A DNA stretch of 64,000 nucleotides, taken from Planctomycetota bacterium. GTDB lineage: Bacteria; Planctomycetota; UBA1135; UBA2386. How positions within the stretch are numbered: the stretch's first letter is position 1; each line of letters begins with the position of its first letter. The stretch covers positions 640,001-704,000 of the forward strand of contig JBKAGP010000001.1 in assembly GCA_046290465.1 (NCBI GenBank). The letters are read 5' to 3'. The position numbers were made by a program, and so were the translations under genes. Positions 43,931-56,705 of the stretch are shown in pieces. A model generated the notes under the pieces. That model had not been told where the DNA came from. It was given only the letters and a program-made list of their open reading frames with translations, and made no database searches.

Positions 43931-45193
43931 CTAGAAGTAGAGCGTCGCCTGCGCGTAGCCGACCTGACGCTGGTCGTCGTCGATCGCGTAGCCGGCGCCG
44001 ACGTGCAGGCCGGGCCGCACCATCTTGCCGACCAGCAGGTCGAACTCGAGTTCGCCGAGCTGGGTCGCCGCGCCGTCGCGGTCGAGGGTCAGCACGGTCG
44101 CGGTGCAGTCGAGGTCGAAGCCCGGCGTGAACTGCGCGCTCAGCTGGTTGGTGTCGAGGTCACTGCGCCAGATGCCGCCGTACTGGTGCAGCAGGCCGGC
44201 CGAGTTGAAGTCGGCAGGGTTGATGTGCAGCGCGCCTTCACTGTCGGTGCGGGTGAACGCGACCGCGCGCAGGAAGCCGCAGCAGGGCTCGTCGAAGGTG
44301 TATTCGAGGCGCGCGCGGTAGGCGGTGACGTCGTCGCCCATGTCGACCGAGCGGTGGGCGAACTGCGCCTCCCATTTGAGGTTCTCGGTGAAGTGGCCGA
44401 CGCCTTCGAGGCCGGCCCAGTTGTCGTTGGCGTTGCGCTGCACGTCGCCGTCGTTGGTGCCGGTCATGAAGTAGGCGTTGAGGGTCTCGAGCAGTCCGTC
44501 CTCGCAGGCGTTCCAGCGCGCGGTGCCGCCGGCGTAGCGTTCGCCGCCGCCGACCAGCTGGCTCTGCAGCGGACCGTAGTTGTCGAACGCGAACGCCTCG
44601 ACGTCGATGTCGCCGAAGCTGCGCGACACCCAGATGCCGGTGAACGCACCGGGGTACTGCAGGAAGTCACACGAGCCGAGCACCATGCCGTTGGCGAGGA
44701 AGTAGTTGCTGCGGCCGATGCGGATCCGTTCGTCGAAGCCGAACGCGTCCTCCAGCTGCATGTAGGCCTGCGCGATGCCGTTGAAGTTCTCGCGGGACAG
44801 GATGCCGTTCGGTCCCTGCTGGAACGGCGCGGCGTCCGAGTAGCCCTCGGCACCGGCCCAGACCTCCGAGTAGTTGAACTCGACGTAGGCCTGCGCCCAC
44901 TCGTTGACCTCGTAGTCGAGCTGCAGGCGCGTGCGCGTGCTGTAGTTGTCGTTGGCGTTGTAGGGGGCGTCGTCCGGGGTCTCGGCGAAGCGACCGCGCA
45001 GGCGGGTGTCGCCGGTGAACCGCAGCTTGTCGGAGCGCAACGTCAGGCCGGTGTCGACCCGTTCGACCTCGTCGCCGGGAGGGGCGAAGCTGAAGCAACG
45101 GTTCTGCGGTGAGTAGCACTGCTGCGCCACCGCGACCTGGGACACGCAGAGGACCGCAGCCACCGTGGCTGCGGTCGAGAGGAGCTTGATCAT
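43931..45193 (-). CDS. Outer-membrane beta-barrel (alginate-export-like porin)
   Basis: Signal peptide, GDTRLR, RTRLQLDY, QAYMQL, IRIGR, alternating beta strands and terminal Phe (ATLYF). Confidence 0.75.
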   Translation of the reverse strand: MIKLLSTAATVAAVLCVSQVAVAQQCYSPQNRCFSFAPPGDEVERVDTGLTLRSDKLRFTGDTRLRGRFAETPDDAPYNANDNYSTRTRLQLDYEVNEWAQAYVEFNYSEVWAGAEGYSDAAPFQQGPNGILSRENFNGIAQAYMQLEDAFGFDERIRIGRSNYFLANGMVLGSCDFLQYPGAFTGIWVSRSFGDIDVEAFAFDNYGPLQSQLVGGGERYAGGTARWNACEDGLLETLNAYFMTGTNDGDVQRNANDNWAGLEGVGHFTENLKWEAQFAHRSVDMGDDVTAYRARLEYTFDEPCCGFLRAVAFTRTDSEGALHINPADFNSAGLLHQYGGIWRSDLDTNQLSAQFTPGFDLDCTATVLTLDRDGAATQLGELEFDLLVGKMVRPGLHVGAGYAIDDDQRQVGYAQATLYF

Positions 45194-45516
45194 CTGGCTT
45201 GCTCTGCTGTGAGAGAGTGGCGGCCGATGCCGCGGAGCAAGTCGATGACGTGGAAGCTGGAGAGCGCCGTGAACTCTTGGCTCAGAAGTTCAGGGGGAAC
45301 CGACCGGCTCCCCGGCTCTCCACGGAACCTGCTCCGTGGATCAGCCAGGGGTTGCTTCACGTGTATGGAAGCAATGGGGTCTGGATCGGTCGGTCGATCA
45401 CGCGACGAACCATATCGCGCAGCCGCGACGGCGGACGTCGCGAATTGTCGCGAAGTTGTCCGGCAAAGCCTGCGTTGCCGTGCAGCGCTTGGGTTTGCCA
45501 TTGCATCGCCGCGCCG

Positions 45517-45533
45517 CTGGCAGGTTCAATGCG
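45517..45533 (+). promoter_or_regulatory. Possible sigma-54 (-24/-12) promoter for the dsrE operon
   Basis: CTGGCAGGTTCAATGCG has exact GG-N10-GC spacing and lies about 280 bp upstream of dsrE. Confidence 0.45.
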
Positions 45534-45814
45534 CGCTGTCCCGGAACGCGCACCCGCCGATGAACCACCCCCGCAGACATTGACACCCCTGAGCCCGGCC
45601 CGGGCGGGGTGCGGTCTGCGCCCCTCATCGGCCTCTCGCTGCCGTTCCGACGCAGGCGTAGCGCATCGCGCTCGCACGGCTTGGGGCGGGCGGGGTCGTG
45701 TGCCTTGGTCAGGCTCTCGGACGGACACGCGCCGTTCCGCTGGATCGATCCACACCGAGCCCCTTGACCCGAACCCTGAGCCCCGAACCCCGAACCCCGG
45801 GGCAAGCCGAAGCC

Positions 45815-46180
45815 ATGAGCAACACATTCTGCGTCACCATCACCGAGTGCAAGACCAACGAGGACAAGGCCACGCTCGGCTTCGTCGTCGCCAACGCCGC
45901 GGTCGGCAGCGAGAAGGAGACGATGGTCTTCCTGAGCGCCGACGGCGTCTGGGCCGCCGTGCAGGGGGAGATGGACAAGGTCGCGGCCGGCGAGCCGTTC
46001 GTGCCGCTGAAGGAGCTGGTCGACAAGTTCGTCGCCAACGGCGGCAAGATCCTGGTCTGTTCGCCGTGCATGAAGAAGCGCGGCATCACCGAGGACCAGC
46101 TGGTGGCGGGTGCGACCCCGGCCGGCGGTGCCGCGCTGGTCGAGTGGCTCGCCAACGGTTCGCCCAGCGTCGGCTACTAG
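45815..46180 (+). CDS. DsrE/DsrF-like family protein
   Basis: ATLGFVVANAA, VFLSADGV, GGKILVCSPCMKKRG. 121 aa. Confidence 0.88.
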   Translation: MSNTFCVTITECKTNEDKATLGFVVANAAVGSEKETMVFLSADGVWAAVQGEMDKVAAGEPFVPLKELVDKFVANGGKILVCSPCMKKRGITEDQLVAGATPAGGAALVEWLANGSPSVGY

Positions 46181-46190
46181 GGAACGGTCC

Positions 46191-46946
46191 GTGCTGACCC
46201 CCGAACAACTTGCCGGACTCGAGCCCGACCGCGTCTTCGACGGCGGCGCGCTCGACTGCGGATCGGGTCTGGTGCTGCTGATCCGCGAGAACATGCTGCC
46301 GGTGCCCGACGCCGGCGTGCTCGAGATCCGCAGCGTCGAACGCAGCGTGCGCGACGACCTGCCGCCGTGGTGCCGGATGGTCGGCCACGAGTTCCTCGGC
46401 GCGCTGCCGGGGGCGAGCCCCGAGCAGGCGCGCTACTTCGTGCGGCGCGGCGGCGGCGCGGCGATGCAGCAGGAGGCGGCCGCGCTCGAGCAGGACAAGC
46501 AGCGCGCGCGCGACTACCAGTGGCGGCTGCGGGCCCGTTCGTCGGCGCCGCTCGAGACGTCGGTCTACTGCCGCAACTTCCAGTGGCGGATCGGGCAGCC
46601 GGCCAGCTTCGAGGAGCAGGACGCCAACCCGTCGGCGATCGAGTCGCTGGTCGGAGCGCTGGCGGGGGACCTGGTGACCGGGTTCGCGGTCGCCGCATCC
46701 CGGGCAGGCCTGCAGGTCGACGACATCGAGTTGACCGCGCGGGCCCGCCTGCACGACGTCACCGCACACCTCGGCCTGGTCGAGGGCGACCCTTCGATCG
46801 AGTCGATCGAGGCGCGTCTGTTCGCGTCGACGTTCGACGACGAGGCGCGGGTGCGGGCGGTCTGGGACCAGACCGTGCGCCGGTCGCCGCTCGCTGCGAC
46901 GCTCCGCAAGGCCACCCGGCTCCACATCACCCTGGCAATCGTCTGA
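46191..46946 (+). CDS. TusA/SirA-like sulfur carrier fused to an OsmC-like domain
   Basis: FDGGALDCGSGL..IR, G.LEIRS, DLPPWCRMVGHE, YFVRR. C-terminal OsmC-like NPSAIESLVGALA...RRSPL. Confidence 0.82.
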   Translation: MLTPEQLAGLEPDRVFDGGALDCGSGLVLLIRENMLPVPDAGVLEIRSVERSVRDDLPPWCRMVGHEFLGALPGASPEQARYFVRRGGGAAMQQEAAALEQDKQRARDYQWRLRARSSAPLETSVYCRNFQWRIGQPASFEEQDANPSAIESLVGALAGDLVTGFAVAASRAGLQVDDIELTARARLHDVTAHLGLVEGDPSIESIEARLFASTFDDEARVRAVWDQTVRRSPLAATLRKATRLHITLAIV

Positions 46947-46960
46947 CCGAGGAGAGGCCG

Positions 46961-48115
46961 ATGTTTTCCGTTACCCAGGTCGGCAGCTGGCCGCGTTCGC
47001 GCAAGCTGCTGCAAGCCCTCCGCGACAAGCAGCAGGGGCGTGCGAGCCGCGCCGAGTTCGAGGCCGTCGCCGACGAGGAGGTGCGTCGCTGCGTCGCGCT
47101 GCAGGTCGAGGCCGGGGTCGACGTGGTCGTCGATGGCGAGCATCGACGCGACAACTTCTACTCGTTCGTCACCGACAAGCTGTCCGGCACCCGGCTGATG
47201 TCGCTGGCCGAGATGCTCGAGTCGATGGAGGACAAGGCGGCGTTCGAGGAGATGCTCGAGACGCTCGACGTGCCGGCGTCGGCGATCCGCAACCCGACCT
47301 GCACCGGCAGGCTCGAACGGCGTGAACCGCTGGCGACCGAGGAGCTGCGGTTCGTGCAGCAGCTGACCGACAAGCCGGTCAAGGTCTCGCTGCCCGGGCC
47401 GTACCTGCTGACCCGTTCGATGTGGGTCGGGGCGTTCTCGCGCGCCGGCTACGACGACAAGACCGAGATGGGCGACGACGTGGTCCGGATCCTGCGCGAG
47501 GAGCTGATCGAACTGCGCGACGCGGGCGTATCGTTCGTGCAGTTCGACGAACCGGTGCTGACCGAGGTCGTGATGAGCGACGACAACGACCGGCGAACAT
47601 TCATGTGAGCCACCCTTGCTACCCGCCGTGATGCGGGTGCCGAACTGGAATACGCCGCGACGCTGCTCAACCGGGTCGTCGACGGCGTCGACGGGGTGCG
47701 TACGGGGGTGCACGTCTGCCGCGGCAACTGGAGCCGCCAGGAGGACGTGCTGCTGACCGGGGACTACGAACGGCTGCTGCCGGCCTTCCGCGCGATGCGC
47801 GTCGACCAGTTCGTGCTCGAGTACGCGACGCCACGCGCCGGCGAGCTGTCGGTCGTCGGCCGTGCCCTCGCCGATCGCGAGCTGGGGCTCGGCTGCGTCA
47901 ACCCGCGCACCGACGAGGCCGAGGATCCGGCGACGATCGTGGCGCGCGCCGAGGAGGCGCTGGCGTACTTCCGCCCGGAGCAGGTGTTCCTCAACCCGGA
48001 CTGCGGCTTCGGCTGCTTCGCCAATCGCTGCGTCAACGTCGAAGACCACGCGGTCCAGAAGCTGCGCAGCATGGTCGCGGCGGCGCGGCAGCTGCGGGAG
48101 CGGCACGGCGGATGA
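46961..48115 (+). CDS. Cobalamin-independent methionine synthase (MetE C-terminal/core-type) family enzyme with in-frame TGA at codon 216, probably selenocysteine
   Basis: SD GAGGAG. Motifs VGSWPRS, DGEHRR, VSLPGP, VQFDEP, then TGA 47606-47608, then the same frame continues through HVCRGNW, LEYATPRAG and NPDCGFG to 48115 (384 aa in total). SECIS-like hairpin at 47618-47640. Confidence 0.85.
47618..47640 (+). promoter_or_regulatory. Candidate bacterial SECIS element
   Basis: GC-U(bulge)-ACCCGC / loop CGUGAU / GCGGGU-GC. The loop starts 19 nt after the UGA and has G as its second base. Confidence 0.7.
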
Positions 48116-48726
48116 GCGCGTCGGCCGACGACGACGACGAGACGGGCGATCCGCGCACGGTGGCGGCGCTCGCCGACGCGGCGGCGTTGACCGGTGCTCC
48201 GTGCCGGCGCTGCAGCAGGGCGCTGTGCGGCCACGAAGCGGTCTACTGCCTGGTGCTCGGCTACAAGGGGGCACCGCACTGCCTGCCGTGCATCGCCGCG
48301 CACATGGGCGAAGCGCTCGCACCGCTGCGCGAACGTGGCTTCGAATACGTGCGGCACCACGACTGCTTCCTCACCGCGTGGCGGCACGCCGGCGACCTCG
48401 AGGGCCATGCCGGAGTCGATCGGCCGCCGTGCGTGTTCGCGCTCGACGAAGATCCCGCCGCTGCGGCGCAGGCGGGCGCAGGGCGCGATGCGGTGGCCGA
48501 GGCCCAACCGTCCGGGCATGCGAGCTGGGACGCCGGCGGCATGGGCTGTGGCGACCTCGTGCTCGAACTGCGCCAGCGGCTGGCGAAGCTGCCGCCGCGC
48601 GGCCTGCTGCACCTGATCGCCACAGACCCTGGTGCGCCGACCGACCTGCCCGCCTGGTGTTCGATGACCGGGCACACGCTCGAGTCCGCCGAGCACCCGG
48701 ACTATCGCATCCGCCGCCGCCCCTGA
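48112..48726 (+). CDS. Cys-rich putative metal-binding domain fused to a TusA/SirA-like domain
   Basis: ATGA overlap. CRRC....C, HCLPC, HHDC, then WDAGGMGCGDLVLELR, ATDPGAPTDLPAWCSMTGH, YRIRR. Confidence 0.85.
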   Translation: MSASADDDDETGDPRTVAALADAAALTGAPCRRCSRALCGHEAVYCLVLGYKGAPHCLPCIAAHMGEALAPLRERGFEYVRHHDCFLTAWRHAGDLEGHAGVDRPPCVFALDEDPAAAAQAGAGRDAVAEAQPSGHASWDAGGMGCGDLVLELRQRLAKLPPRGLLHLIATDPGAPTDLPAWCSMTGHTLESAEHPDYRIRRRP

Positions 48727-48758
48727 ACGGCCGGCGGTCGCCTGCACGCGGGCTCGGC

Positions 48759-49121
48759 TCAGAGCCGCACGTTCTCGCGGCGCATCTCGCCGTCGTCCTG
48801 CTCGACCAGCCGCACGAAGTGCGCGCCGCGCGCGAGCGACGAGCGCTGCAGCAGCGGCCGCAGCACGCCGAGCAGCTGGTCCTCGTCGGGGCCGCAGAAG
48901 AACAGGATGCACTCGCCGCCGCCGAACTCGTCGCCGTCGTACTCGCCGACGCCCGCGTCCAGCACCGCCGCCTCGAGCTGCTCGGCCAGCAGTTCGATCT
49001 GGGCACGCTCTTCGTGCGTGCCCATGTTGCGGTTGCTCAGCCGGAGCACGACGAGCAGGTCCCGCTCGTCGGCGGGATCCTCGTCGTCGAAGCCGAAGTC
49101 GGGCAGGTTCTGGTCGCTCAT
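48759..49121 (-). CDS. Small acidic hypothetical protein
   Basis: MSDQNLPDFGFDD...GVGEYDGDEFGGGECILFFCGPD, 120 aa with coding-like codon bias. Confidence 0.7.
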   Translation of the reverse strand: MSDQNLPDFGFDDEDPADERDLLVVLRLSNRNMGTHEERAQIELLAEQLEAAVLDAGVGEYDGDEFGGGECILFFCGPDEDQLLGVLRPLLQRSSLARGAHFVRLVEQDDGEMRRENVRL

Positions 49122-50555: not shown

Positions 50556-53500
50556 TTGGCCACGAACTCGAAAACCACCTCCCGCAGGGCCGCTCCGGCG
50601 GCGCCGAAGCGGGCCCGCAAGAAGGCCCGCAAGAAGGCCCGCAAGAAGGCAGCTGGGGCGCCGGCGCAGGCGCCACAAGTCGTGGTGCGGGGGGCGCGTG
50701 AGCACAACCTGAAGAACGTCGACCTGGCGTTCCCGCGTGATTCGCTGACGACCTTCACGGGCGTCTCGGGCTCCGGCAAGTCGAGCCTCGCGTACCACAC
50801 GATCTACCAGGAGGGCCAGCGGCGCTTCCTGGAGAGCCTGAGTTCGTATGCGCGGCAGTTCCTCGGGCGCATGGAGAAGCCCAAGGTCGACCACGTCGAA
50901 GGCCTGTCGCCGACGGTCTCGATCGACCAGAAGTCGACCAGCCACTCGGCGCGCTCGACGGTCGGCACGCTGACCGAGGTGATGGACTTCCTGCGGCTGT
51001 GCTGGTCGCGGCTGGGCGAGCCGAGCTGTCCCGAGTGCGGCGCGGCGATCGAGTCGTGGTCGCCCGATCGCATCGTCGACGCGATCGTCGCCGAACACGA
51101 CGGCCAGGCCGCGATGGTGCTGGCGCCGGTGGTGCGCGAGCGCAAGGGCGAGTACCGCAAGGAGCTGGTCGAGTGGGCGCAGAAGGGCTTCGTGCGGGCG
51201 CGCATCGACGGCGTCGTGCGCCGCCTCGACGAGGACATCCAGCTCGAACGCTACGTCTAGCACACGATCGAACTGGTCGTCGATCGCCTGACGATCAAGC
51301 CGGAAGTGCGGTCGCGGCTGGCCGAGGCGGTCGAGCAGGCGGTGCAGCTCGGCTGTGGCCTGTGCACGCTGGTCGACGGCAAGGGGCAGGACGACCGGCT
51401 GTTCTCGACCCAGCGCAGCTGCCCGGACGGCCACGGCGCGCTGCCCGAGATGGAGCCGCGGCTGTTCTCGTTCAACAGCCCGATCGGCGCGTGCCCGAGC
51501 TGTGACGGCATCGGCGAGACGTTCGGTTTCGCGCCGGAGCTGTTGGTCCAGGACGAGAACAAGTCGATCCGCGACGGCGCGCTGCACGTGTTCACCGACC
51601 AGGGCCGGCTGGTCTACGGGCGGTTGACGATCGAGCACCTGCAGGGCGTGCTCGAGGCGTTCGGCGGCGACGTCGACACGCCGTGGAAGAAGCTCGGCAA
51701 GCGGGTGCAGAAGGTCGTGCTGCACGGCTCGGGCAAGAAGAAGTTCGAGTTCAAGTGGCAGCGCAAGACCGCGATGTTCACGACCTCGGGCAGCGACAAG
51801 GTCGCGTTCCCCGGCGTGCTCGGCCACCTGGAGAAGGTCTACCGGCCGTCGCGTGCGCGGCACCTGGATCGCTTCCGGGCCGCCACGCCGTGCGCCGAAT
51901 GCGACGGTTCGCGGCTGTCCGCGGCGGCGCGGGCGGTCACGTTCTGCGGCCGCACGTTGCCCGAAGTGCTGGCGATGTCGGTCGACGACGCGCTGGCGTG
52001 GGTGCGTGCGATCGAACTGAGCGGCAACGACCTGCGCATCGGCCGCGACATCCTCAAGGAGATCGACCGGCGGTTGACGTTCCTGGCGGACGTCGGCCTC
52101 GGCTACCTGACGCTGGCGCGCCGCGCCGCGACGCTGTCGGGCGGCGAGTCGCAGCGGATCCGGCTGGCGGCGCAGGTCGGTGCCGGCCTGCGCGGCATCC
52201 TCTACGTGCTTGACGAGCCGAGCATCGGCCTGCACGCGCGCGACCAGCAGCGGCTGCTCCGCACGCTCGAAGCGCTGCGCGACCGCGGCAACACCGTGGT
52301 CGTCGTCGAGCACGACGAGGAGACCATGGAGCGCAGCGACTTCCTGGTCGACGTCGGCCCCGAGGCGGGCGCGCACGGCGGCCGGGTGGTGGCGGCGGGC
52401 ACGCCCGACGAGGTCAAGGACAACCCCGCGTCGATGACCGGCCGCTACCTGCGCGGCGACGTGCAGGTGCCGATGCCGGCCGAACGCCGCCGCGAGGATC
52501 GCGGGGCGCTGCGGGTCCGCGGCGCGCGCCACCACAACCTCGACGGCCTCGACGTCGACCTGCCGCTCGGCCGGCTGACCGCGGTCACTGGGGTTTCGGG
52601 TTCGGGCAAGTCGACGCTGGTGCACCACGTGCTGGTGCCGACGATCAAGGATCACCTCGCCGACAAGGGCGTCGCACCGGCGCACTGCAAGGCGGTCGAC
52701 GGCATCGACCAGATCGACAAGCTGGTCGAGATCGACCAGAAACCGATCGGGCGCACGCCGCGCAGCAACCCGGCGACCTACACCGACGTCTGGACCCACG
52801 TGCGCGACCTGTTCGCGATGCTGCCCGAGTCGCGGCTGCGCGAGTACAAGAAGGGCCGGTTTTCGTTCAACGTCGCCGGCGGCCGCTGCGAGGAGTGCCA
52901 GGGGGCCGGCGTGAAGACGCTGGAGATGAACTTCCTGGCGCCGGTCGAGGTCGTCTGCGAGGAGTGCGCCGGCGCGCGCTTCCACGCCGACACGCTGGCG
53001 ATCCGCTTCAAGGGCAAGAGCGTCTACGACGTGCTCGAGATGACCGTCGAGGATGCCGCGGCGTTCTTCGCGGACCTGCCCAAGATCGCGCGCGGCCTCG
53101 ACGCGCTGCTGGCGGTCGGCCTCGGCTACCTCAAGCTCGGCCAGCCGTCGACGACGCTGTCGGGCGGCGAGGCGCAGCGGGTCAAGCTGGCGACCGAGCT
53201 GCAGCGTCCGGCCACCGGTCAGACGCTCTACATCCTCGACGAGCCGACCACCGGCCTGCACTTCCAGGACGTGGCGCGCCTGCTCGACGCGCTGCAGCGA
53301 CTGGTCGACGCCGGCAACAGCGTGCTGGTCATCGAACACAACCTCGACGTCGTGCGCGCCGCCGACCACCTGATCGACCTCGGCCCGGAGGGCGGCGTCG
53401 GCGGAGGCCGGCTGGTCGCGACCGGCACGCCCGAGGAGGTCGCCGACCTCGACGACTCGCACACCGGCAGGGCGCTGCGCGCGATGGGGCTCGGCAAGAA

Positions 53501-56500
53501 GCGCCGCCGCAAGGCCGCCAGGAAGGCCGGCAGCCAGGAAAGCGACAAGGGTGGGGCCGCGAGCGCGCGCAGCGCGCCGCCCGAGGCGATCTCGGTGCGC
53601 GGCGCGCGCACGCACAACCTGCAGGCGGTCGACTGCGACGTGCCGCTGGGCAGCTTCACGGTCGTCACCGGTCCGTCGGGGTCGGGCAAGTCGAGCCTGG
53701 CGTTCGACACGATCTTCCAGGAAGGGCAGCGCCGTTTCCTCGAGAGCATGTCGACGTACGCGCGCCGCTTCCTCGGCCGCATGGACCAGGCGCCGGTCGA
53801 CAAGCTCGACGGGCTCGGCCCCGCGATCGCGATCGACCAGAAGCGCACCGGCCGGAGTCCGCGCTCGACGGTCGCGACGACCACCGAGATCCACGACTAC
53901 CTGCGTCTGCTCTACGCGCGCACCGGCCGGCACCACTGCCCGACGCACGGCCAGGAACTGGTCGCCTGGTCGCCGAGCAAGGCGGCCGCGCACCTGGTGC
54001 AGCAGCACGCGGGGGCGCGCGCCTACGTGCTGGCGCCGGTGACCGTGCCCGTGCTGAAGGGCAAGGCGGCGGTGCAGTGGCGCGACGCGCTGCTCGAGCA
54101 GTGGCGCACGGCCGGCTTCGTGCGCGCGCTGGTCGACGGCGAAGAGCGGCGCCTCGACGACGACTGGGGGCGCAAGCTGCCCGGTTCGCTCGACCTGGTG
54201 GTGGACCGCACCACGCTGAAGGACCGCACCCGCCTGGCCGACGCGATCGAACAGGCGCAGGCGCAGACCCGCGAGCACGACGGCCAGGTCGCCGCGGTCG
54301 TGCAGGTGGTGCCGAAGGACGCCGAGCCGGAGCGGCACTGGTTCGGGGCCGAGCCGAGCTGCGAGCACTGCGACTACCGCGCGCCCAACGACCCGCACCC
54401 GCGCTGGTTCTCGTTCAACCACCACAGCGGCGCGTGCAGCAGCTGCCTCGGTCTCGGCAAGGTCGTGCTGTGCGCCGAGGAGCTGCTGGTCAACCACCCG
54501 CACAAGCCGGCGTTCGGCGGCGCGATCTCGCACAGGGGCGGCCACTTCACGTTCCTGACCGGGACCGACGGTTACTACCACGAGGTCGCGTCGGCGGTCG
54601 CCGAACGGTTCGGCTTCGAGCTCGAGCAGCCCTGGAACAAGCTGAGCAAGCAGGCGCGCGAGATCCTGCTGCGCGGCGCCGGTGACGAGCGGTTCGAGGT
54701 CGTCTTCAAGAAGGACGACGGCGGCCGCAAGCGCGAATGGCGCATGAAGGTCGCGTGGAAGGGCTTCGCCAGGCAGGTCGAGGACTGGTTCCACGGCCGC
54801 GACGCCGACCACGAGGACGGCGACGATCGGCTGGCCGCGGTGATGCGCAGCGAGCTGTGCCCCGTCTGTGAGGGCGATCGCCTGCAGCCGGGACCGCGGC
54901 ACGTGCGGGTCGGCGGCGTGCGCATGCCGGAGGTGCTGGCGCAGACGGTCGACCAGGCCAGCGAGACGCTGGCGAACCTGCAGCTCGACCGCACCGAGCA
55001 GCGCATCGCGGCCGACGTGCTCAAGGAGCTCGAGCACCGGCTGTCGTTCCTGCGGGAGACCGGCCTCGGCTACCTGTCGCTGGACCGCTCGGCGGCGACG
55101 CTGTCGGGCGGCGAGGCGCAGCGCATCCGGCTGGCGACGCAGCTCGGCAACAAGCTGGTCGGCGTGCTCTACGTGCTCGACGAGCCGACCGTCGGCCTGC
55201 ACCCGCGCGACACCGAGCGGCTGCTGAAGACGCTGCTCGACCTGCGCGACCTCGGCAACACGGTGCTGGCGGTCGAACACGACGAGGTGATGGTGCGCGC
55301 CGCCGACCACGTGCTCGACATCGGGCCGGGTGCCGGCGTGCGCGGCGGCAAGGTCGTCGCCAGCGGCAAGCCGGCCGAGATCGCCGGCAGCGGCACGCTG
55401 ACGGGCCAGTGGCTGAGCGGCACGCTGCCGATCGAACGGCGCGAGGCGCCGCGCGAAGCCGCCGGCTACGTCGAGCTTCGCGAGGTGTCGGTGCACAACC
55501 TCGACCGCGTCGACGTCGACGTGCCGCTCGGCGTGTTCACCGCGATCACCGGCGTGTCCGGCTCGGGCAAGTCGTCCTTGGTGATGGACGCGCTGGTGCC
55601 GCAGCTCAAGGACGGCAGCGTCGACGTCGTCTGGAACGACGAGGAAGAACGGCACCACCAGCTGATCGTGGTCGACCAGTCGCCGATCGGGGTGTCCCCG
55701 TCGAGCAACCCGGCGACCTACACCAAGGCGTTCGGGCCGATCCGCGAGCTGTTCGCGGCGACCCCGCTGGCGCGCCAGAAGGGCTTCGGCGCCGGTCGGT
55801 TCTCGTACCACGTCGCCGCCGGCCGCTGCGCCAACTGCGAGGGCAAGGGGCAGATCCAGGTCGAGATGCACTTCCTCGCCGACGTCTGGGTGACCTGCGA
55901 GATCTGCCGCGGCAAGCGCTACAACCAGGAGACGCTGACGGTCGAGTACCGCGGCAAGAACATCGCCGACGTGCTGGCGATGGACGTCGACGAGGCGCTG
56001 CAGTTCTTCGGCAACCACAAGAAGATCGTGCGGCCGCTGCAGCTGCTGCACGACGTCGGCCTCGGCTACCTGACGCTCGGCCAGCCGGCCAACACGTTCT
56101 CGGGCGGTGAGGCGCAGCGGATCAAGCTGTGCGCCGAGCTGCAGCGCCGGCCGAGCGCGCACACGATCTACGTGCTCGACGAGCCGACCACCGGCCTGCA
56201 CGCCGACGACGTGCAGAAGCTGCTGCGCGTGCTGCAGCGGTTGCTCGATCGCGGCGACTCGGTGATCTGCATCGAGCACCACCTCGACGTGATCGCCGCC
56301 GCCGACCACGTGATCGAGATGGGGCCCGAGGCCGGCGACGGCGGTGGACGCTGCGTCGCCGCGGGAACCCCCGAAGCGCTCAGCAGGATCCAGGCCAGCC
56401 ACACCGGCCGGTTCCTGAAGGACCACCTGCAGGCGCTCGCCACCGCGGGCGCAACGGCCAGCGAGAAGGCGGCGCCGCGGAAGAAGGGCGCTCGGAAGAC

Positions 56501-56705
56501 GGGCGCGACGAAGAAGGCGCCCGCGAAGAAGGCCCCCGCGAAGAAGGCCCCCGCGAAGAAGGTCCAGAAGAAGAAGGTCCAGAAGAAGAAGGCCCAGTCC
56601 AAAAAGGCCCAGACGAAGAAGGCCCCGAACACCACGGGGCAGCAGCAGAAGGCTCAGGGAGCGCGGCGCAGCGCGTCGCGCAAGACCCGAGAGGAGATCG
56701 GATGA
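50556..56705 (+). CDS. uvrA: Double-length UvrA (two complete UvrA units in tandem) interrupted by an in-frame TAG at codon 235
   Basis: Four Walker A G.SGSGKS motifs, four [LF]SGGE signatures, four LDEP Walker B motifs and several CxxC pairs. ORFs ending at 51260 and resuming at 51306 are in the same frame across the TAG at 51258-51260. TTG start assumed. Confidence 0.88.
56481..56630 (+). repeat. About ten 15-bp coding repeats encoding a histone H1-like [10 protein letters not shown] tail of UvrA
   Basis: aagaaggcccccgcg and aagaaggtccagaag units in tandem. Confidence 0.85.

Follow-up and report, generated by a model that had tools for sequence, protein, structure and literature searches.

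A MetE-like zinc enzyme with a predicted selenocysteine in a family-specific loop, encoded beside TusA- and DsrE-type sulfur carriers

We analysed a stretch of 64,000 nucleotides from a Planctomycetota bacterium (assembly GCA_046290465.1, contig JBKAGP010000001.1, positions 640,001 to 704,000), hereafter referred to as the window, whose first letter is position 1 of the coordinates used below. The gene under study, located on the plus strand at 46961-48115, encodes a MetE-like enzyme of the PF01717 family and consists of 384 codons and a terminal TGA, with an additional in-frame TGA at 47606-47608. Judging from comparative sequence analysis, this gene is almost certainly a genuine selenoprotein gene, in which the UGA at codon 216 is read as selenocysteine (Sec, U) in the column of a conserved Cys of the motif RTFM-C-A. 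The initial annotation, made from the letters of the window, had placed a Sec at residue 216, and this assignment is supported by the Cys column in homologues, by 80 TGA-bearing orthologues, by the coupling of a stem to the TGA, by the sel genes of the genome and by independent assemblies. As an overall explanation, a Sec216 inserted by means of a downstream hairpin in a MetE-type zinc enzyme, with a proposed function in sulfur relay, is very probably the best available.

The reading frame extends from the ATG at 46961 to the terminal TGA at 48113-48115, and its sole interruption is the TGA at 47606-47608, in the context DRRTFM-*-ATLATRRD. As initially described, the two open reading frames seen in this region are thus one frame split by a single TGA: the read-through product of 384 residues matches PF01717 from end to end (residues 3-376, E 1.1e-32, 114.1 bits for a cut-off of 21). 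The Shine-Dalgarno sequence and the zinc-ligand motifs HVC, E and DCG that had been reported could also be located. The former is a Shine-Dalgarno-like AGGAGAGG at 46950-46957 on the plus strand, read from the sequence 3 nt ahead of the ATG. The presumed zinc ligands are His251 and Cys253 of His251-Val-Cys253 (47711-47719), Glu287 of the motif LEYATPRAG (47819-47821) and Cys348 of NPDCGFG (48002-48004), all of them downstream of the in-frame TGA. They are invariant in an alignment of 27 full-length public homologues that are 58-72% identical to the window protein (alignment A1), and they align with MetE, the H-x-C motif and Cys348 matching those of the Neurospora crassa enzyme (PDB code 4ZTX). 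The invariance of these positions and the PF01717 match, which runs through to residue 376, indicate that coding constraint persists past the UGA.

With regard to the residue at column 216, a Cys, as expected for a Sec site, is observed in 26 of the 27 homologues of A1, within a nearly invariant RTFM-C-A, and the FMC motif that the initial annotation had mentioned is real. When the gene was read at the DNA level, it was found in 19 of 61 related genomes, with TGA at column 216 in seven and TGC or TGT in twelve; the seven comprise the genome of the window and six others, and belong to seven genera of the family. A sample of the phylum gave matches in 60 of 401 genomes, and the best 30 of these 60 comprised 5 TGA and 25 Cys forms. 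The best 80 loci of a collection of species-representative genomes comprised 74 TGA and 6 Cys forms, and a metagenome scan with a query from a second clade, described below, yielded 2 TGA and 77 Cys forms among 79 readable loci. After removal of duplicates, 80 distinct TGA forms were obtained (78 plus L141 and L142), in agreement with the expectation that other genomes would share the codon, and all 120 non-TGA orthologues read at the DNA level exhibit TGC or TGT. The record labels of the TGA loci span 11 phyla, including Planctomycetota (24), Acidobacteriota (8), Pseudomonadota (7) and Krumholzibacteriota (5), these names being depositors' labels on metagenome bins, some of which are doubtful. 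In the 80 distinct sequences, the frame and the zinc-ligand motifs are intact downstream of the TGA, and protein-level conservation, with alignment to the Cys-form homologues, extends over the segment from the TGA to a GTG at 47696. A separate observation concerns P0009, a public homologue of 377 residues that is otherwise 71% identical: it is alone in A1 in lacking RTFMCA, in place of which it has a six-residue gap, and may have lost the loop naturally or reflect an artefact of gene calling.

A hairpin of the selenocysteine insertion sequence (SECIS) type is located at 47618-47640 on the plus strand and begins approximately 12 nt past the UGA codon. Its strands are GC-U-ACCCGC (47618-47626), a CGUGAU loop (47627-47632) and GCGGGU-GC (47633-47640), which is the same stem, bulge and loop as in the initial annotation. 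The core stem pairs C47622-C47626 with G47633-G47637, and the outer pairs, namely A47621-U47638 and the lower GC/GC with a bulged U47620, are less conserved. Bacterial SECIS elements are usually recognized, for instance by bSECISearch-type criteria, from their distance to the UGA and from a G early in the loop. In the main group of orthologues (clade 1), the RNAalifold consensus is a stem of five base pairs, CCCGC/GCGGG, with a CGNGAY loop. The hairpin was expected to be conserved in TGA-bearing homologues, and indeed all five stem pairs are kept in 75 of the 75 clade-1 TGA forms, in contrast with none of the 43 Cys forms, which keep three of the five at most; the six Cys forms nested within clade 1 exhibit one to three. 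The second base of the loop is a G in every one of the 75 TGA forms.

The silent sites of clade 1 follow the position of the stem. At the four codons directly after the TGA (Ala, Thr, Leu and Ala), all four bases are seen at the third position among the 75 sequences. Further downstream, the third position is C in 71 and T in 3 of 74 sequences at Thr221, C in all 75 at Arg222, T or G only at Arg223, G in all 75 at Ala225 and T in 68 of 75 at Gly226. These codons (221, 222, 223, 225 and 226) have the five lowest third-position entropies among 123 fourfold-degenerate, amino-acid-conserved columns, for which the gene-wide median is 1.44 bits. The initial annotation had regarded the A/T-ending codons around the site as selected at the RNA level. 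This holds for CGT, GAT and GGT, whose T is conserved in 62, 54 and 68 of the 75 sequences, respectively, but was rejected for CGA-ACA and CTT-GCT, as their third positions vary over all four bases among orthologues. Four substitutions were observed within the five core pairs, every one leaving a G-U pair, and the outer A-U pair is missing in 7 of the 75 sequences. To judge from these orthologues, the hairpin is under selection as RNA, and its support consists of silent-site conservation and coupling to the TGA, not of covariation.

A second group of Sec forms (clade 2), comprising L051, L059, L060, L141 and L142, is approximately 52% identical to the window protein. In these sequences, the TGA again occupies column 216, within the motif THTFM-U-GVLAAKASPEGE. 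Their hairpin, GCCC-GGA-GGGY, differs from that of clade 1; it has three outer pairs, except in L142, which has two. The codon string AGCCCGGAGGGY, encoding SPEG, is used in all five clade-2 Sec forms and in none of the 25 Cys forms encoding SPEG, which use 20 other codon strings. This hairpin is based on five sequences, only two of which were supplied by the metagenome scan, and the order of genome G372 comprises one genome only, hence no further clade-2 members there. In a FastTree phylogeny of 121 rows, clade 1 corresponds to a starred group of 81 (75 Sec and 6 Cys forms) and clade 2 to a starred group of three Sec forms within a Cys-form group. Four changes of state between Sec and Cys are required on this tree, of which at least two are forced by starred branches; the tree is unrooted and was built with a fast method, and does not fix the direction of these changes. 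The natural Sec/Cys pairs and the two SECIS solutions provide material on how Sec sites arise.

The genome of the window, which is a single contig with 94% completeness, was searched for the Sec machinery, and selA, selB (above cut-off), a tRNA-Sec with anticodon TCA and selD were all found. The selD gene has an in-frame TGA of its own at SSAG-U, a known Sec/Cys site, followed by a hairpin, and the genome therefore has at least one other selenoprotein. This selD is adjacent to selA on the minus strand, outside the window (genome contig C1:1309619-1311717). SelA is also present in all ten other Sec-form genomes tested. With regard to a possible assembly error, positions 47606-47608 are unchanged in contigs of runs from four studies besides the likely source. 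Silent strain differences in two of these four runs (X2 and X5) fall at 47611 and 47617, past the TGA but ahead of the core stem, and no difference occurs in the core stem or loop in any run; the comparison used assembled contigs, and no RNA runs are listed among the sequencing runs. Taken at the level of genomic sequence, these comparisons show that this UGA is conserved by selection and tied to an RNA hairpin, in genomes able to decode Sec. A bacterial hairpin of this kind recruits SelB carrying Sec-tRNA to the UGA. At UGA216, the hairpin would thus direct SelB and Sec-tRNA(Sec) to insert Sec, according to the standard bacterial mechanism.

The AlphaFold model of the read-through protein is a confident barrel (predicted local distance difference test, pLDDT, 86.6; predicted template modelling score 0.89), which Foldseek matched to the MetE of Thermotoga maritima (PDB code 1T7L) with a probability of 1.00 and a template modelling score of 0.74; structural matches were also obtained with short proteins of Shewanella and Listeria. 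In a profile alignment with 4ZTX, the motifs GS-x-P, DGE, DEP, H-x-C, E and PDCG line up, and we take these to be the residues that hold homocysteine (G8-S9, E60 and D196) and the zinc ligands (H251, C253, E287 and C348). These eight residues are invariant in A1, and C253 is present in 75 of 75 clade-1 sequences. The protein can be assigned to the MetE catalytic-domain superfamily as a single-domain enzyme that is predicted to bind and depend on zinc. The RTFM-U-ATLA segment is gapped relative to 4ZTX and 1YPX, and the alignment with 3RPD is in two pieces, with this segment in between; by alignment, the Sec/Cys-bearing segment is a subfamily-specific insertion of approximately 13 residues that follows the DEP strand. 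The model places it between the strand 192-196 (VQFDE) and the helix 225-240, in a beta-alpha loop on the catalytic face of the barrel, beside the strand ending with H251 and C253, and the loop reads as a mobile lid in this model. Two further Cys residues, Cys352 and Cys357, follow Cys348 and are invariant in clade 1 (DCGFGCFANRC), where C44 and C114 are near-invariant; more distant Cys forms exhibit DCGFGTFANRP in the region of residues 352 and 357.

The Sec enzyme gene is the third of four genes in a row on the plus strand, which encode a DsrE-like protein, a TusA-like/OsmC fusion, the Sec enzyme and a Cys-rich TusA protein. The first gene of this module (45815-46180) encodes a small DsrE-like sulfur carrier of 121 residues with a CxxC near its C-terminus (PF02635, E 4.9e-15). 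The second (46191-46946) encodes a weak TusA-like N-terminal domain with the motif DCGSG, fused to an OsmC-like C-terminal domain (PF02566, E 5.5e-7); its NCBIfam matches to TusA (E 3.7e-4) and to OsmC-related (seleno)protein (E 8.9e-5) are both far under the cut-offs. The ATG of the fourth gene (48112-48726) overlaps the stop of the enzyme gene (ATGA), and its product combines a Cys-rich N-terminal domain with a TusA domain at residues 140-199 (PF01206, E 2.9e-9), which has an active-site-like GCGD with Cys146. Residues 1-129 of this protein matched no Pfam family, and C31, C34, C39, H41, C57, C60, C85 and C107 are invariant among its 13 orthologues (alignment A2). By look, this N-terminal half (48112-48500) is a putative metal- or cluster-binding domain.

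With the window proteins as tblastn queries, 66 of 78 distinct Sec loci and 25 of 43 Cys loci had all three neighbours next to the enzyme gene, the flanks in these counts being 1.5-3 kilobases long, with some loci at contig ends and cross-hits between TusA domains. Clustering of the open reading frames of 67 distinct Sec loci with flanks of 3 kilobases recovered a DsrE family in 58 and a TusA-containing family in 62 of the 67, the latter with about two open reading frames per locus. Every other sense-strand family occurs in at most eight of these 67 loci, around which no corrinoid protein, methyltransferase or transporter recurs. There are at least two module arrangements, since many Sec loci (L075, L087 and L106, at approximately 1550-1810) have a small TusA gene upstream of the DsrE gene, and the window, L061, L067 and L103 have the longer Cys-rich TusA gene downstream of the enzyme gene instead. 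Within its own genus, the gene was found in one of 14 other genomes (71-94% complete). This patchiness, together with the identity of 67-87% across many phylum labels, suggests that the module is accessory and transferable. In the genome of the window, the Sec enzyme gene is the sole PF01717 member.

Sec usually marks a chemically critical residue. In the present enzyme, it would take the place of a subfamily-specific Cys in a flexible loop on the catalytic face. As this residue is near-invariant, is located in a predicted lid over a zinc-thiolate site and appears to have been exchanged twice between Cys and Sec, it would be the reactive residue of the subfamily, and we consider a catalytic or relay function of the Sec probable. 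The selenol, or the thiol in the Cys forms, could act as a mobile covalent relay, which would take sulfane sulfur from, or form an Se-S bond with, the co-encoded cysteine carriers of the TusA, DsrE and OsmC types, and could then hand the sulfur to a homocysteine-like thiol activated by zinc. TusA and DsrE systems carry persulfides during tRNA thiolation and sulfur oxidation. Since no partners of the enzyme are constant other than carriers of the cysteine-persulfide type, a sulfur (or Se-S) relay is the reading that we favour; as a specific chemistry it is put forward tentatively, first in rank, ahead of a methyl relay and of a metal-ligand function. Extending it to the whole four-gene module as a self-contained, selenium-enhanced pathway, with the carriers loading the selenol of the lid loop and with sulfur passing to or from a homocysteine-type thiol, is speculative and, in our judgement, doubtful. 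If true, this pathway would represent an enzymatic function new to the MetE fold, with sulfur or selenium transfer replacing methyl transfer from folate, and its Sec enzyme would be the first selenoenzyme of that fold.

Several observations weigh against the overall explanation of a Sec-containing relay enzyme. The fold of the 47600-47660 segment taken as a single sequence is not significant (z -0.47; 56 of 200 shuffles fold equally well), and since a single hairpin of this quality is expected by chance in DNA so rich in G+C, the weight of the hairpin comes only from the comparison of orthologues. No double compensatory change was observed in the core stem of clade 1, which is short (five base pairs), among its 75 sequences. 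SelA was also detected in all five Cys-form genomes tested, which is consistent with Sec decoding, but not discriminating. The Sec loop is modelled with low confidence (pLDDT blocks 66 and 52, residues 209-213 below 50), and the TusA-like N-terminus of the 46191-46946 product is under the family thresholds (Pfam TusA, E 0.08).

The fold of the MetE superfamily, the presumed zinc ligands and the homocysteine-holding residues, all of which are kept, would also suit an enzyme that transfers methyl (alkyl) groups independently of folate and B12, perhaps as a synthase of methionine or selenomethionine or as a demethylase, as would the name methionine synthase II carried by public fragments of the protein. 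In such an enzyme, still a real selenoprotein, Sec216 would carry an Se-methyl intermediate or bind a methyl-selenium or methyl-sulfur substrate. In a preprint, MetE is placed in one superfamily with MtaA-like enzymes, and an MtaA-like enzyme performs methyl transfer from methylcobalamin to selenide; the table of a 2026 review includes Sec in place of the acceptor or ligand Cys of methylated-DNA-protein-cysteine methyltransferase and of arsenite methyltransferase. However, no corrinoid protein, methyltransferase or candidate methyl-donor gene recurs in the 67 loci, whose conserved partners are sulfur carriers; a full-length MetH (1688 bits) is already encoded in the genome, and every NCBIfam methionine-synthase equivalog is far under its cut-off. 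We regard methyl transfer as rather unlikely.

It is less likely still that Sec216, in a real selenoprotein, is a metal or metalloid ligand without any covalent relay, either as a fifth or alternative zinc ligand or as a binder of soft metals or organometals. The proximity of the Sec loop to the strand bearing H251 and C253 in the model and the additional invariant Cys352 and Cys357 beside the ligand C348 in clade 1 would fit such a function, and the 2026 review treats Sec as a metal ligand in several recent families. Nevertheless, the four canonical ligand positions are all retained, with none missing, and the partners are sulfur carriers rather than metal transporters or chaperones.

A different possibility, which we consider very improbable, is that UGA216 is read as Cys, Trp or another standard residue, through near-cognate suppression or through Cys carried by tRNA-Sec at low selenium. 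There are Cys forms of the enzyme, presumably with activity, but a conserved hairpin at SECIS distance and a complete Sec machinery argue for SelB-dependent decoding, and as TGA also terminates the gene, the genome has no general reassignment of this codon. A true stop, whether in a pseudogene, in a natural split gene with products of 215 and approximately 139 residues or through a sequencing error, is the least credible explanation and was rejected: gene callers do split the gene, the best public matches do end near the TGA and the GTG at 47696 could begin a second open reading frame, but the TGA occupies the identical column in 80 distinct orthologues with the frame and zinc motifs intact downstream, the stretch up to 47696 is conserved as protein and aligns with Cys forms, silent-site constraint marks the hairpin just past the TGA, and independent assemblies agree on the codon.

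The Sec enzyme shares its triosephosphate isomerase (TIM)-barrel fold and catalytic motifs with canonical MetE (PF01717; 1T7L and 1XDJ of T. maritima, 4ZTX of N. crassa), but is only 18-22% identical to it. Canonical MetE is a two-domain protein of approximately 750 residues, in contrast to the 384 residues found here, and the corresponding models score far below their cut-offs (TIGR01371, 97.7 versus 929.95 bits; PRK05222, 106.4 versus 541). All NCBIfam methionine-synthase models stay below their cut-offs, the highest score being 177 bits for 406. The Sec enzyme does not have the N-terminal folate-binding domain of MetE (PF08267, 21.6 bits for a cut-off of 27), has the insertion of approximately 13 residues that is absent from MetE, and is encoded together with sulfur carriers. 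The single-domain proteins of the same superfamily, with approximately 340-390 residues, are closer in architecture; they include MesA-D (Price et al. 2021, PMC7857596), the Shewanella protein 3RPD and the YxjG-like Listeria protein 1YPX. All short-form NCBIfam models are far under cut-off with the Sec enzyme, the comparison with MesA-D being made at the level of models, and in the alignments with 3RPD and 1YPX the RTFM-C/U segment is either gapped or left unaligned. Neither of the partner types of MesA-D, a corrinoid protein and MesX, recurs near the Sec enzyme in the 67 loci, and a term search of Price et al. returned no mention of selenocysteine, TusA or DsrE.

As in established bacterial Sec/Cys families, such as the SelD of the same genome, the UGA stands at a Cys column, is followed closely by a hairpin with an early loop G and would depend on selABCD. 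Unlike these families, the enzyme is a MetE-type zinc barrel, which is not among the families in the part consulted of the table of the 2026 review, and its Sec is located in a flexible loop instead of a thioredoxin-like CxxU/UxxC motif. The enzyme resembles TusA/DsrE relays in its gene neighbours, which encode DsrE and TusA domains with conserved Cys; the difference is that the proposed acceptor is a MetE-like zinc enzyme, not DsrC, MnmA or an Hdr-like complex, and that OsmC is joined to one of the carriers and an unassigned domain with seven Cys and one His to another.

The treatment of the family in public databases is consistent with split gene calls. A search with the N-terminal piece of 215 residues retrieved 2222 public proteins at E <= 1e-40; the best 120 of these are 79-100% identical, and all have 213-222 residues, with exactly 215 in 100 of them. 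The matched fragments are named methionine synthase II, 5-methyltetrahydropteroyltriglutamate-homocysteine methyltransferase or hypothetical protein. A search with the full-length protein retrieved no full-length Sec form, its top matches being Cys forms with at most 72% identity. Since orthologues with up to 87% identity exist at the DNA level, the Sec family is systematically truncated in public gene calls, and a correction of these annotations would touch many genomes and metagenomes.

No Sec-containing family of the MetE type or of PF01717 was found in the literature searched, as far as its main open texts are concerned, which include selenoproteome reviews of 2026 and 2022 and the Haft 2022 preprint, supplements and subscription papers being outside its scope. 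Within that scope, this agrees with the initial annotation, which knew of no MetE-family selenoprotein. The Sec MetE-like proteins appear, from the genomes compared, to be a genuine, widespread and undescribed selenoprotein family. They would add a fold, the MetE-type zinc barrel, that is off current lists of prokaryotic selenoproteins. The Sec also points to the family-specific loop as the probable reactive centre of an uncharacterised enzyme that co-occurs with sulfur carriers, and this loop gives a handle on a step of sulfur or selenium amino-acid metabolism.

Upstream of the module, approximately 620 nt without a convincing open reading frame (45194-45814) separate the DsrE gene from a divergent porin-like gene on the minus strand (43931-45193), which has a weak Alginate_exp match. 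An Rfam scan of 45000-49000 at E <= 1 gave no match, and this stretch accordingly corresponds to no riboswitch or RNA family in that scan; it may hold the promoter or a regulatory region of the module. Further downstream, at 51306-56705 on the plus strand, an open reading frame of 1799 residues contains repeated ATP-binding cassette ATPase and zinc-finger motifs and, by eye, resembles a doubled UvrA-type protein.

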